This document shows positions 802 to 64,000 of a stretch of DNA of 64,000 nt, one piece after another. The stretch is taken from the NCBI GenBank assembly GCA_964016885.1, contig OZ024749.1, forward strand, positions 42,160,001 through 42,224,000. Reading direction: 5' to 3'. The notes beneath the pieces are model-generated. The model did not search any database and had not been told where the DNA came from. It saw only the letters and a program-made list of their open reading frames with translations. Source of the DNA: Eledone cirrhosa. Lineage: Eukaryota. Position 1 is the stretch's first letter. Each line of letters begins with the position of its first letter. The position numbers and the translations under genes are program-made.

Positions 802-1291
802 CTTTATATTATCACTTTCAAAACTGACACCTCAACAGGATTTGAACTAAGAACAAATACCATAAAGCTTACTGTCCAACTGACAATTCTCTCAATCTAC
901 CTAACAATAGAAATATATTAATGAAAAAGTTAAATAGAGGAAATGATTCATAACAAAGAGGGAATGATATTTTTTTGGGTTGAGACATGTTTAATAGTGA
1001 GAAAAACATATTTTGATGATGATATGACATGATAATAGAGAATTATATTGTTTACCTTGAGATTACGCCCTTTAGACATGTATGAGGGTGTGTACATATC
1101 TTGGTGTTATACACGCATATATATATATATATATATTATATATATATTTATTTAAAGGTTAAACAAGGTTCAATGAATAAATCAAAGAATGAGTTTTACA
1201 ATAGATTGGAAGCACTCAACAGAATGGTTTTCCGGAGTTATTAATATTAATTCAAAATATTAACAAAAATAGACATTCGTGTGATCAACTA

Positions 1292-1358
1292 TATTTTATT
1301 ATACATATTTCAGAGGTACTGAGCTATCTTCAACAGTACGTTCTCATCAGATAAAATA
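1292..1358 (-). ncRNA. Minimal type I hammerhead ribozyme motif (family A), minus-strand copy
   Basis: Reverse complement reads TATTTTAT-CTGATGA-GAACGTACTG..CAGTACCTCT-GAAA-TATGTA-TA-ATAAAATA: 8-bp stem I, intact core, stem II, short quasi-palindromic stem III. Confidence 0.75.
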
Positions 1359-1490
1359 AGATGATGCATGACATACCTTGACATAGTAGATGGTTAAGAT
1401 TCAGTCACTACCATGACTGAATCTTAACCATCTGTTTACCATGACTGAATCTTAACCATCTACTATGTCAGGGTATGTCATGCATCATCT

Positions 1491-1557
1491 TATTTTATCT
1501 GATGAGGACGTACTGTTGAAGATAGCTCAGTACCTCTGAAATATGTATAATAAAATA
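1491..1557 (+). ncRNA. Minimal type I hammerhead ribozyme motif (family A), plus-strand copy
   Basis: Stem I TATTTTAT(1491-98)/ATAAAATA(1550-57); CTGATGA 1499-1505; stem II GGACGTACTG/CAGTACCTCT; GAAA 1538-41; TATGTA; predicted cleavage after A1549. Confidence 0.8.
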
Positions 1558-58729: not shown

Positions 58730-61700
58730 GACTAATAGTGAACTAGGTCGTACTAGGACGAGTGGGGATCTAGGTATGACTGGTATAATTCAATACAGAG
58801 AGAGAGAGAAAAAAAAACAATCTATATATATATATATATATATATATATATATACACACACACAGGGTGTCCCTAAAAAATGTAGACATTCATTAAAATG
58901 CTGTTGAAGTGTGTATACAGTTTTTGGGACACTATATATAAGAACTGACACAGTTCTACAGTGGAATAGATGTTGAGAAAGCTAAGAACCTCTATAACGA
59001 CAACAATAACAACAGTAATGATGAAGAACAGTGAACGAGTCAAGGTGTAAATTAGGCTCTCTGCGTAATTGTCCAGCCTGCTAGAAATAACAGCCAAATG
59101 TCCCTGAAATGACATGCACCCCCCACCCCCCACCCACACACACACACTTATTGTCTTGGAGAAGAACAAAAGACAGACTAAATAATGTGTCGTACATATA
59201 GACTTTATATGCAATACTCGAAAAAAAAAAAAAGAATAGGTGTGTGTCATGGCTGGAACGTCCTTGATCGCAGGTCTGCTCAATCAGGCCTGACCTGTGG
59301 TTATAATAACACTAACAACGACGAGTGATCAACTCCCAACACCTGACTAAGCTGGCTGCTTGTATTTTCTTTCACTTTCTCTTCAGAAAAGCCAGCAACA
59401 ACAATCCATGCAGTTTCCTGTCATATAATAAATACGGGACCATGTGCAAAACTTAAATGTTTGTTCATCATCATCATCACAAAGGCATTGTATTGGCAGA
59501 ATCGTTAGAGCGTCGGGCAAAATGTTTGTGGTATTTAATTACCGAACGGATGGTATTTAATTACACGAACAAAAACAAGACAGGTTTCTATAAGGTTGTT
59601 GTTCGACCAGCTAGAAATAGCAGCCAAATCATAGACTACCGTCTTGAATTAAGGACACACATAGCACAGTCTAGTTACATGGTAAAGAAGCGGGATAGTT
59701 AAGGTCCACAGGTCTGTTGGATAGGAGCCAAATTGAGACTAAACAACGAGAAAGGACATTTTTTTAATGTAGTCCTTGATACCCACATAAAGAAGAGAAA
59801 GAGATGGTCACATTTGAAACGCATTTGATTACGATTGACCCGCTAATTACTATATATATATATATATGTATATGTATTCGTGTGTAAGTTGCACTGGTAG
59901 ATAAGTCACACCTCCATTTTACATACGACATTTACAATGTACCGCATATTTTGAATCGAGGTTTTGCAGGTCCAATAGATAAGTCACATGCTGGATTTTC
60001 ACGTCGGATTTCTAAGTAAAAGTGCGATCTACACACGAATATATATATATATATTACACACGCAACCAAAATGAAGCAAAATGGTTATAGCTAAAGGAAA
60101 CTAAGCCCGGTCACGAACTAGTGATGGTTATAGTAGTAGCTATTTGGGACTACATTATCAAATAGGTGTGTCCTCTATAATTTGAGGAGATTTAGCTGCT
60201 ATTTCTAGTCTAATGAGCTTGCGACCACGTACAGACGGCCCCCACCTCGTTTCCCTCGTTAACTGTATAAATAGTAGTAGTAGATATCTAGGGCTACATT
60301 ATCAGATAGATGTGTCCTCTATAATTTGAGGGAGATTTGACTGCTATTTCTAACATGGTGAACGTGCGACTACGTACATACCCCCACACCACCCCTCGTT
60401 AACTGTGGTGATGGTGGTGGTAGTAGCAGTAGTATTCGTAGTAGCAGGAAAACCCCAGTTATTCAACAACAATGAGGAAGTTCACAGCTTCCTACTAAAA
60501 CATCAATAACAAAATAAATACAAAGAATTTACTTTAACAAGATAAAGCAAGAGAAATCATTGCTCGACTCCCGAACAGGGTAGTGAGTTGTCATTGGGCA
60601 AGATACTTTATTTTACGTTGCTCCAGTCCGTCCACTCAGCTGGTAAAAATGAGTCAAAAGGCCAAAGTTAGCACACACTGTCACGCTGAATCTCCCTGAG
60701 AACTAAATTAAGTGTACACGTGTCTGTGGAATGCTCACCCACTTGCACGTTAATTTTATGAGCAGACTGTTTCGTTGTTCGAACCACTGGAACGCTCGTC
60801 GTCAGAACCGACGAAGGTCCAATAAAAATTCTTTCGTTGCCACATATTTCTGATGAAAGACTTGGCATTATGATTTTCAAATAATCGAAAATTTATAGGG
60901 ATTTAGTAATAGACATGACTTTCATTATTAAATTGATGTTTGGAACATAACTTGACTAAGGTTCTTGCATAAAATTATGACAGGTGCTTTTTAGATTAAT
61001 ATAAACACCTTAAAATAAAGTTGTTTTTATAATCATAGAACCAGGGACGGTTTGGTATAAAAAATATTAACCGGTTTCAGACGGTTTGGTATCAAAAATA
61101 TTAATAACCGGTTTTAGATAGTTTGATATCAAAAAGGTTAATAAACTCACTCACACACACCTAGTTCCCTAAACGACCTCACGGGAAAATACAGGTAAGA
61201 GGAAGACCTAGACACGTTCATTGTTCATATATACAAACTACCAAAGCAGTCTCCCTCTCGACTGAACAACAGACCTTTCTCCAGTGACATTATCACATCT
61301 AATTAAACCAGGCCATCTAATCAACTGTCAACCACTGCTACCTTCTTCAAGAAACTACTGTTAAACTATCAAACGACAGCTTTAACACCTTTTGGACTTA
61401 TTCTCTCTCTCAACTGCTCTGTCGTTGAACCTGTAGCCTTCTTGGTCCTCGTACAACCTCCCATATCACTGCTATCGGGGTATATATATATATATATATA
61501 TATATATATATATATATAATTTATTTGTGTTCCAGCCGAGGGGCTGAGGCCATGCTACATTTATTTATACATGATGTTCCCCCAAAAATGTATACACAAA
61601 GGCTGTGCATTCTTGCATTCTAATAAATATTGCCTGTACAGGTGATAAAAGTTTGTGTAGATGTTGGGGGACACCCTGTATATATATATATATGATTATT

Positions 61701-62667
61701 TCTAGGGTGTTTAATCCTTAAAGTGGTGTAAATTCCACAAAGGTAATAGCGGAAGAAATTGTAACTCAGGTTTCAAATGTTGAAATCTAGGAAGATGTCC
61801 ACTTTTATTTAGTGTTGGCAGACGACAATGAGCTGGGTGTGTCTCCCTATAGCTTTCCATTTTTTCTCTTCTTTGTCAACATTAACACCTCTCTCTCTCT
61901 CTCTCTCTCTGCCACTCCATTCAGTATAATTCCTCCTCCTTTAACCCATGTTTAATTTTCTTTCTCTCTTCCTTCTCAGACTCTTCTAGGTTGTCCAGCC
62001 TGACAGACGGACCAACCAAAGGATCAACATATATTTGATATTAGAAAAATTAGAAGACTTAATCCAAACTGAACTTTCCCATAGTTGCTACTTTTGAGTT
62101 TGTGTCCTCCACGACAAAAAGTAAAAAACTCTACTATATGTATTGAGCACTTTTCCTCCTGTTTGGAAACTCAAACACACATACACATAAATGTGTGTAT
62201 AATATATACAAACATAAAACGGGATGGGTGACTATTTTCCTGTTTAATACATCTATTCACAAGCTTAGCTCATTAACAAATTAATTAATATATGATGATG
62301 ATGATAGTAGTGGTGGTGGCGGCAATGTGCTTCGCCTTAAGAACATGTGTGTAAACATACACGTGTGCGTGTATCAAATTTACCGAGTTAAACGGTGTCG
62401 AAGTAGACAAGTGTCTCTTCACAATAATTTCCGCTATTAATTATGTCCGAGAGAAGCTGTCGTGTATAAGTATATGTTGAGAAACTATCGATGTATATTT
62501 TATATGTATCGATTAAACCTATATATATATATATATATATATACACAACAGAACAGTGATTACACACCCACGTAAAGACGTATGTATACAAACAGAGAAG
62601 TAAATATACATACATACACACACACATAATATATGTGTGTGTGTGACTGGAATTTTGTTTTTAGCTT

Positions 62668-62760
62668 GATAACTCTTGTGAGCAGATTGATGCTGGAGTC
62701 AGGTCGATAACACAAATAAGGACCTTGAACCAATCATCTGCGAAACGTACGTAACTGGTC
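62668..62760 (+). ncRNA. Decayed hammerhead-like motif with long stem II
   Basis: CTTGTGA (2 changes from CTGATGA) - GCAGAT...AGGTC..GACCT...ATCTGC - GAAA - CGTACG - TA. Perfect palindromic stem III, eroded stem I, followed by the UU-bulge hairpin at 62816-62835. Confidence 0.5.
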
Positions 62761-64000
62761 GATAACCAATAAAAACATTCATGTGAAACTTCGTTTTGTT
62801 ATACTTAATTTACAAACTCTGCCTTAGTATTGAGTGCTAGTTATTTGGTAGCACCTCCAGTAAGCCACAAAGTTACAGAAATGATTGAACTATATATATA
62901 TATATATAAGACGCTGTGACCCCGGATGGACCAACAGCATCGTTGGTAGGGGTCGAAACTGCTCCAGGTCCATCTCAACGGCCGATGACAATGGAGTTTT
63001 GTCCGTTTGTATATATATATATATTTTTGTTTCCGTTCATTGTCTTGTCCTTCGTTCATTTTCTTATGTTTATATATATATATATATGAAGTATTTCCGT
63101 AGGAAAGGAAAAGAGAGTGCTCTATGTAGGCTACAGAGCTTTTTAGTTATGTATTAAACAACATAAGATGAAATAATTATCTTATGTTGTTTATTACATA
63201 ACTATATATATATCAGAATGGGAGCGGTAAAATCCGTTAGACCATTACTCACGAGAGTACTCGATACTTGGGGTACTAGACTGGTTTCAACAGCTAGATC
63301 CGATCTAGCAGTTGAAACGGCAGGAGCTCAGCCGTTGTGGTCCCGAATTTATCATCATATATATATATATATATATATATATATATACACATACATACAT
63401 ACACACACGTCCGTACGTGCGTGTGAAAATCAGGCAGAGAGTACAAACATTTTTGAATTCATGGTCATGAATTCAAAGCGAAGTGAAGACAAGATAAGAG
63501 ACATCTAATTTAAAGCTAAGTCAGACGAGACTAGCCATTAGCAAACAGGCCCCCACCAGCAGTAATGATGGTGTGGTGTGGTATACGGTATAAAGCTAAA
63601 TGTGTTGTTATGAAAACAGTGAGGAAAATGGGTCTTGTTGAATAACCAACTATGAAATGTAAAGACGATCCACTTTACATTAATTACACCTTGCATGAAG
63701 CGAGGAGTTTGATGATGGTGATGATGACAGGGGGATGTTTTAGTCATGGAGGGAACCCCCACCCTTTAGTCATAGTTGTTAATTAGCATAACTACAAGTT
63801 CTCTATTTTTCTCTCACTTTGTGTGTGTATCTATCTATCTATCTCTTACCTCATGTCTTTCTCTCTATCTATCTTCTCCCTTGACAAGTTCTCTATTTCG
63901 CTATCTTCCTCTCCCTTTGTGTATCTATCTATCTATCTATCTCTTACTTCATGCCTATCTCTCTATCTATATATTCTCCCATGTCTCTATCTAACTCTGT

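Follow-up and report, generated by a model that had tools for sequence, protein, structure and literature searches.

Tandem bulged hairpins lie just beyond the insertion ends of Hydra-clade Penelope-like elements in Eledone cirrhosa and may position their reverse transcriptase

How Penelope-like retrotransposons (PLEs), the closest retroelement relatives of telomerase, choose a template and a start site is an open question. In the Hydra clade, a reverse transcriptase (RT) is followed by a GIY-YIG endonuclease at the C-terminus, and the clade definition includes RW[KR], DKT, CxCX5C, CxxC and CxH motifs and a hammerhead ribozyme (Craig et al. 2021, PMC8557442). The elements, their hammerheads, their tail and their inverted structure have already been described (PMC8557442, PMC4209133, PMC3846280 and bioRxiv 10.64898/2026.07.22.740005, main texts). 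In PAc, a Poseidon-clade element of Anolis, two internal RT start sites bound the tail; the RT starts at +111 to +118 yet needs RNA up to +172, and PAc cuts both strands at AT-rich targets, a dimer being predicted (Frangieh et al. 2024, PMC11167929, main text). Even in that main text the RNA signal is left undefined. We analyzed 64,000 nucleotides of Eledone cirrhosa DNA (assembly GCA_964016885.1, contig OZ024749.1, positions 42,160,001 to 42,224,000, forward strand), hereafter the window, in which a first-pass annotation had noticed a recurrent hairpin with a lower stem of ACUC and GAGU, a 2-nt bulge and a variable upper stem. The hairpins are real. They appear in the leaders of elements whose protein features are those of Hydra-clade PLEs, typically in tandem, and each lies just beyond one of two classes of insertion end. 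From this position and from conservation we infer, with about two chances in three (0.68), that each hairpin docks the element's RT and sets the start of copying a few bases 5' of itself.

All nine hairpins listed by the first-pass annotation were found at their places and on their strands, each directly followed by RC, as were a half copy at 29774 and a decayed copy at 63258-63281. Two minus-strand copies had been missed (63117-63139 and 21920-21943). The comparison with dinucleotide-shuffled DNA proposed by that annotation favoured the motif: ACTC-N6-22-TWGAGYRC matched the window eight times, against a mean of 0.66 and a maximum of 3 in 100 shuffles, and a wider motif matched ten times (shuffles: mean 1.43, maximum 5). 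A genome-wide pattern search in the 3.0-Gb genome returned 53,739 matches and none for the reversed-pattern control; a second pattern gave 29,302 matches versus 594 with its reversed control. Among the Rfam covariance-model matches listed for the window (150 of 181), none lay on a hairpin, none reached the gathering score and nearly all were microsatellite-driven; on 12 leader loci no match fell on the hairpins either.

The earlier description of the shape held in general, with exceptions. The upper stem usually keeps its pairing, but the copy at 56867-56882 has no real upper stem and seems to have arisen by deletion from the ACTC TGC tat GTA form of its family. The lower stem and bulge, said to be nearly invariant, do vary: the first pair is A-U, G-C or U-A across families (A.C mismatched in the copy at 62128), and U, C and A all occur as the second base of the bulge. 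The consensus is R-CUC-Y..R-U(U/C/A)-GAG-Y-RC-U-N-U, with an A/U-rich, G-poor 5' flank. When window copies were folded alone, the stem, 2-nt bulge and stem formed the minimum-energy structure in 6 of 11, and the folds were weak (-2 to -8 kcal/mol, z -0.6 to -2.5). Window hairpins are often preceded by a palindromic arm and a hammerhead core, and a (TA)n or similar run follows most of them within a few tens of bases.

Within the window, the hairpin-bearing elements have no long protein-coding frame. Longer copies of the family represented at 17371, however, carry one open reading frame (ORF) encoding an RT and then, at the C-terminus, a GIY-YIG endonuclease, and many copies have open frames of 700-790 codons. 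The three ORFs tested all contained RLRWR or RMRWK at residue 35, DKT at about 114-117, a CxCX5C linker, and CxxC and CxH near the C-terminus. These are clade-defining features, and the elements bearing them are assigned, on domain order and motifs, to the Hydra clade. Naiad was rejected as parent clade, the endonuclease being C-terminal and not N-terminal, and so were Nematis and Neptune, which have DKG and CX2-5CxxC instead of DKT and CxCX5C. Five 8-mers searched against Naiad and Chlamys consensi revealed no such hairpin among the matches listed (the first 6 per term). The copies are inserted in (TA)n, with an inverted 5'-truncated copy and a tail at one end. CUGANGA..GAAA cores, putative hammerhead ribozymes, lie upstream of the first hairpin; Rfam hammerhead models had no hit among the matches listed for the window or on the 12 leader loci. 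Read by eye, the hammerhead of family A, to which the 17371 copy belongs, has a variant U3-A8 core, its stem II is very long and its stem III palindromic (locus L195, minus strand just upstream of the first hairpin; window 17250-17370). Covariation of U3-A8 in hammerheads has been described (PMC4209133). Loci L148-L212 include many intact frames of 710-790 codons, some in tandem at about 3.5-kb spacing, and these intact frames and tandem copies suggest recent activity of Hydra PLEs.

The motif was then followed in leaders selected independently of it. From 77 relatives fetched from metagenomes by protein alone, 44 distinct leaders of at least 140 nt were kept, and hairpins were called without regard to upper-stem pairing. 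In full-length leaders the order is hammerhead, first hairpin (hp1), second hairpin (hp2) and ATG. The strict motif was present in 36 of the 44 leaders, in two copies in 23 and in one copy in 13, with 1 occurrence in 562 ORF-internal windows and 3 in 44 antisense leaders as controls. A relaxed motif occurred in 43 of 44 leaders versus 29 of 587 control windows. The two hairpins are 55-83 nt apart in metagenome leaders and 67-94 nt in the E. cirrhosa genome; hp1 lies 48-67 nt after the hammerhead GAAA (20 leaders), and the ATG begins 13-40 nt after the end of hp2 (median 21, 23 metagenome leaders), or about 65 nt past it in family A. Among six published Hydra consensi inspected by eye (PMC8557442, File S7), the motif is found in four, coral and sea cucumber elements and Hydra-1_Crog: Hydra-2_Amil and Hydra-2_Ajap have a single copy each, Hydra-1_Ajap has two and Hydra-1_Crog has a variant; it was not seen in Hydra-1_Amil or Hydra-1_Obim. 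The first-pass claim of conservation across divergent elements stands for Hydra-PLE leaders whose proteins are about 40% identical; it had named neither the clade nor the second hairpin. As a negative control, a non-Hydra PLE family of the same genome lacked the motif at 10 of 10 loci (L302-L311), several of them with complete tandem leaders; L277-301 showed no leaders and so were not counted. In L148, L149 and L164, hp2 appears to carry an insertion of about 50 nt between its strands, and the ends still map just before hp2.

Covariation in these protein-chosen sequences, with repeated switches of the closing pair on a tree, supports the earlier view that the structure is selected. The pair next to the bulge was Watson-Crick in 52 of 54 cases (35 C-G, 17 U-A; shuffle mean 29.7), and the next three upper pairs in 31 of 50, 23 of 32 and 14 of 25 (p<=0.0002, 0.0002 and 0.005). 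For each of upper pairs 1-4, pairing was more frequent than with shuffled partners (p<=0.0002 to 0.005). In a 28-ORF tree without named reference Hydra RTs, the hp1 closing pair was paired in 28 of 28 and, by parsimony, changes five times from U-A to C-G or back; well-supported branches force at least two of these switches. In a combined set, partly pattern-selected, the bottom pair was G-C in 57 of 79 and A-U in 19 of 79, and U-A also occurs.

Evidence on function comes from the insertion ends. The position of hp2 beyond the tailed end was first seen in two other families and then predicted for the window families; the prediction held, since hp2 starts 3 nt past the tailed end for the copies at 17371 and 30606 and a few bases past it for that at 1238. 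Thirty loci of family A were chosen by an anchor upstream of both hairpins, blind to the end: 15 ended at hp2-3 (3 nt before hp2), 12 at hp1-5 and 1 at hp1-7, while the remaining two were a variant copy and a copy ending at hp2-15. Owing to TA microhomology, the aligner prints hp2+0 for the hp2-3 ends. In family B, all 30 loci fell by eye into two classes, 14 short and 16 long. In a per-copy pass over the families of the genome, made after leaving out the references L223, L225_m_1579, L014 and L197 (not leaders), L109 (internal Met) and leaders below 140 nt, 136 of 196 alignment ends fell at most 10 nt 5' of a hairpin. Among the others, some 50 were hits to a short interspersed element (SINE) in a single kept reference, L237. 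Because that SINE gave these false ends, we used the TA-flanked subset, in which 118 of 121 termini lay within 10 nt 5' of hp1 (63) or hp2 (55). All seven metagenome termini were likewise within 10 nt 5' of a hairpin. The two classes are also paired within insertions: 46 of 68 head-to-head insertions had both ends classifiable, and 45 of these joined a long and a short end, 1 two long ends and none two short ends, a class under-sampled since many loci were picked by hp1 patterns. Long+long pairs are not disfavoured by this sampling and would make up about one third if ends were chosen independently. These ends lend indirect support to the first-pass suggestion of a cis signal for the mobilizing RT, since in both classes the end falls within about 10 nt on the 5' side of hp1 or hp2.

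A mechanism can be proposed in which the RT would dock on the lower stem, with its bulge, and on the conserved bases at the 3' side. The element protein would cut both strands of (TA)n DNA, and the A/U-rich bases just 5' of each hairpin would pair with the TA primer at the cut. Because RT runs 3' to 5' on RNA, the end positions place each hairpin immediately beyond the stretch that is copied from its start, and the start-setting hairpin would never be copied by that same enzyme. Two RT active sites, one per hairpin, would copy the RNA from opposite sides of the break: the cDNA begun at hp2 would include hp1 and the spacer, that is, the tail, the cDNA begun at hp1 would lack it, and the two joined head to head would yield the palindromes. 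The window holds hp1 and never hp2 because hp2 lies outside the copied part. That the tandem pair loads two active sites on a single RNA, each starting immediately 5' of its own hairpin, one on either side of a TA-repeat double-strand cut (two primers, one template), is a more tentative proposal, to which we give slightly less than even odds. If true, it would explain why PLEs have a tail, head-to-head palindromes and tandem arrays, and the hairpin would be a portable signal with which a telomerase-related RT initiates internally. A homodimer prediction on residues 1-490 scored 0.00 and was used neither for nor against.

Several results weigh against docking of the RT by the hairpins. The strict motif is absent from 8 of the 44 leaders and single in 13. 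A looser first pass placed only 199 of 318 own-genome and 7 of 14 metagenome ends near a hairpin, although it took in cross-family and SINE hits and was redone per copy; the under-sampling of short+short pairs belongs here too. The central CUC/GAG pairs show no covariation, as they are fixed by the motif definition. In context, the mean pair probability of the lower stem exceeded 0.5 in no more than 40 of 62 cases; for family A hp1 it was 0.01 and 0.48. For family B and five other window copies, no full leader or ORF was found. The non-Hydra family of the same genome has two ends without the hairpin motif, so the motif is not needed for a two-end pattern in general. In that family (DKG, 887-codon open frames, TA targets), the two end classes are about 40 nt apart (for example L302 1500-1720, and the 3' ends of L303 and L305), and after both come a similar CAT(T)T(C)ACA word and what may be a small hairpin; this is perhaps another kind of paired signal. 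Finally, G.U outnumbered A.C by only 9 to 4 in the unbiased set (p=0.27), so this asymmetry does not settle whether the motif is read as RNA or as a DNA strand.

The best-surviving alternative to docking is that the hairpins direct RNA processing, by cleavage or termination a few bases 5', and that RT begins at the ordinary 3' ends of the RNA. The same two end classes would be expected, and in PAc the ends of RNA-seq reads match the start sites (PMC11167929, main text). Processing alone does not explain the pairing of one end of each class in 45 of 46 insertions, however, and PAc starts internally on unprocessed RNA in vitro (same main text); we regard this explanation as unlikely. Less probable again is that the motif is read as DNA, in single-stranded cDNA or an extruded hairpin, by the GIY-YIG endonuclease or the RT during second-strand synthesis or resolution. 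The inconclusive 9 to 4 asymmetry leaves room for it, and the Drosophila Penelope endonuclease needed tail sequence to cleave (cited in PMC11167929). Yet hp2 sets the commonest end and is missing from inserted DNA, and therefore can act only on the template. The sense strand of own-genome copies also carries 35 G.U versus 6 A.C, in copies that are not independent and are partly pattern-selected.

The short distance from hp2 to the ATG (13-40 nt in 23 leaders) would suit an element for translation initiation on RNA left uncapped by hammerhead cleavage, with the link to ends secondary, and ribozyme-linked translation initiation is reported in viruses and non-LTR elements (available text of PMC13725137). 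This would leave the tie between end positions and both hairpins unexplained, and in family A the ATG lies about 65 nt beyond hp2; we consider it improbable. The least probable reading, that the hairpin is a tertiary partner stabilizing the minimal hammerhead, as the first-pass annotation had also suggested, draws on the fairly narrow 48-67 nt between GAAA and hp1 in 20 leaders and on the need of the PAc hammerhead for protein assistance (PMC11167929, main text), but is not favoured because the loops vary freely in length and sequence and the motif is duplicated, hp2 lying more than 100 nt from the core and being tied to insertion ends, and because the motif is absent from the non-Hydra PLE family of this genome.

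Docking of the RT by the hairpins remains our preferred reading, and the window copies can be described with it in mind. Five of the 13 (1238, 17371, 30606, 63139 and, weakly, 63281) have DNA similarity to loci with Hydra ORFs. The hp1 with its RC at 1212..1238 (minus strand) belongs to a palindromic Hydra-PLE insertion, in its tailed end; TA runs at 1117-1151 and 1602-1635 flank this insertion, with a hammerhead core at about 1308-1350 (minus strand); it is 91.5% identical to locus L221, which continues into hp2 and a Hydra ORF. A complete short head-to-head insertion of family A occupies 17250..17445 (plus strand), its left arm stopping at hp1-5 and its right arm at hp2-3; its hp1 is at 17371..17396 (plus strand), and locus L195 provides the full-length leader. 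In family D, an untailed arm at 29847..29928 (minus strand) stops 9 nt before the hp1 position, and hp1 is found at 30606..30627 (plus strand) in a copy that stops at 30694, 3 nt before the hp2 position; this copy is 98.6% identical to locus L219, which continues into hp2 and a Hydra ORF. The hp1 at 63117..63139 (minus strand), with a G-C first pair, is from a family related to the L148/L173 Hydra elements (80.6% to L173), and a decayed hp1 of a family-A relative lies at 63257..63281 (minus strand).

The other eight copies, including all three of family B, have no DNA link to ORF-bearing loci and are assigned to Hydra PLEs by motif and context only. Family B comprises an hp1 with two G.U pairs at 28366..28387 (minus strand), in a head-to-head insertion with arms at about 28351-28460 and 28461-28534 and a minimal hammerhead core; the 3' half of a hairpin at 29774..29785 (plus strand); and an hp1 that lost its upper stem through a small deletion at 56865..56882 (minus strand). 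A search for the hp2 of family B recovered only 4 chimeric junctions, and no full-length copy of the family came up in a DNA search. When the continuation of the family A tail was guessed and used as query, it gave 5 chance hits only. The copy at 21920..21943 (minus strand) has a G-C first pair and no matched parent element; that at 24517..24544 (plus strand) is of hp1 type, about 45 nt before a microsatellite, and the search for its parent ORF was without match. At 34562..34588 (plus strand), an hp1-type motif with a UA bulge adjoins a short palindromic arm, with no parent ORF found; its upper stem and loop are identical to hp2 of the metagenome element L090, the pair at the base of the stem differing (A-U versus G-C). 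No parent was matched for the A.C-mismatched copy at 62128..62150 or for the hp1-type motif at 62816..62837, about 55 nt before a TA run (both plus strand).

Hydra ends of different families often abut, inserted in each other's TA flanks (window 29774-29928 and 63117-63281; also L028, L171, L275 and L276), and create chimeric junctions that mimic two-hairpin leaders. Other repeats are plentiful in the window. The ends of another family, with a hammerhead-like core on the minus strand and without the bulged hairpin, lie at about 5780-5890 and 56650-56770; short interspersed repeats are abundant (for example 9360-9764 and 46000-46057), one giving a weak tRNA match (Rfam, 28.1 bits, below threshold), and many minisatellites are scattered across the window.

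Compared with the described Hydra clade (Craig et al. 2021, PMC8557442, main text), the E. cirrhosa elements agree in RT and GIY-YIG, RW[KR], DKT and CxCX5C, in (TA)n targets, hammerhead, inverted 5'-truncated copy and tail at one end. They differ in their tails, which are 30-40 nt in that paper and about 65-95 nt here (hp1 and spacer), and in number: few Hydra families are reported there outside cnidarians, whereas we find tens of thousands of ends and many open ORFs. The main text of that paper names no signal for the two ends, and the words hairpin and stem-loop or stem have no occurrence in it or in the main texts of PMC4209133, PMC3846280 and bioRxiv 10.64898/2026.07.22.740005. Our literature searches, with subscription papers and Repbase Reports outside their scope, found no account of the motif or of its duplication. 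PAc resembles the proposed Hydra model in its two internal starts bounding the tail, in requiring RNA 3' of the start and in cutting both strands; unlike Hydra, it belongs to a different clade and starts inside the ORF in an 'AC-rich stem loop', and its main text, from which it is known here, defines no conserved or duplicated recognition motif (PMC11167929).

A motif of about 25 nt, found twice just beyond both insertion ends, makes it possible to design exact mutations for testing. It is also one way to explain why PLE insertions have an asymmetric tail and an inverted structure, and it lets tens of thousands of short TA-flanked palindromic repeats in the E. cirrhosa genome be recognized as Hydra PLE ends. 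Stem-loops that recruit an RT are known elsewhere, in the 3' stem-loops of stringent LINEs and SINEs and of R2 and in the bulged epsilon hairpin of hepadnaviruses; in each, a short cis element fixes the start of its own RT, and epsilon shares the bulge. In LINEs and R2 the signal is found 5' of a terminal start and is itself copied, and epsilon templates priming from its own bulge. The Hydra hairpin, by contrast, comes as a tandem pair, is located 3' of the start and is missing from the cDNA that it would position. Judged by its position and conservation, it would represent a new arrangement, a duplicated RT-positioning RNA signal lying 3' of the start.

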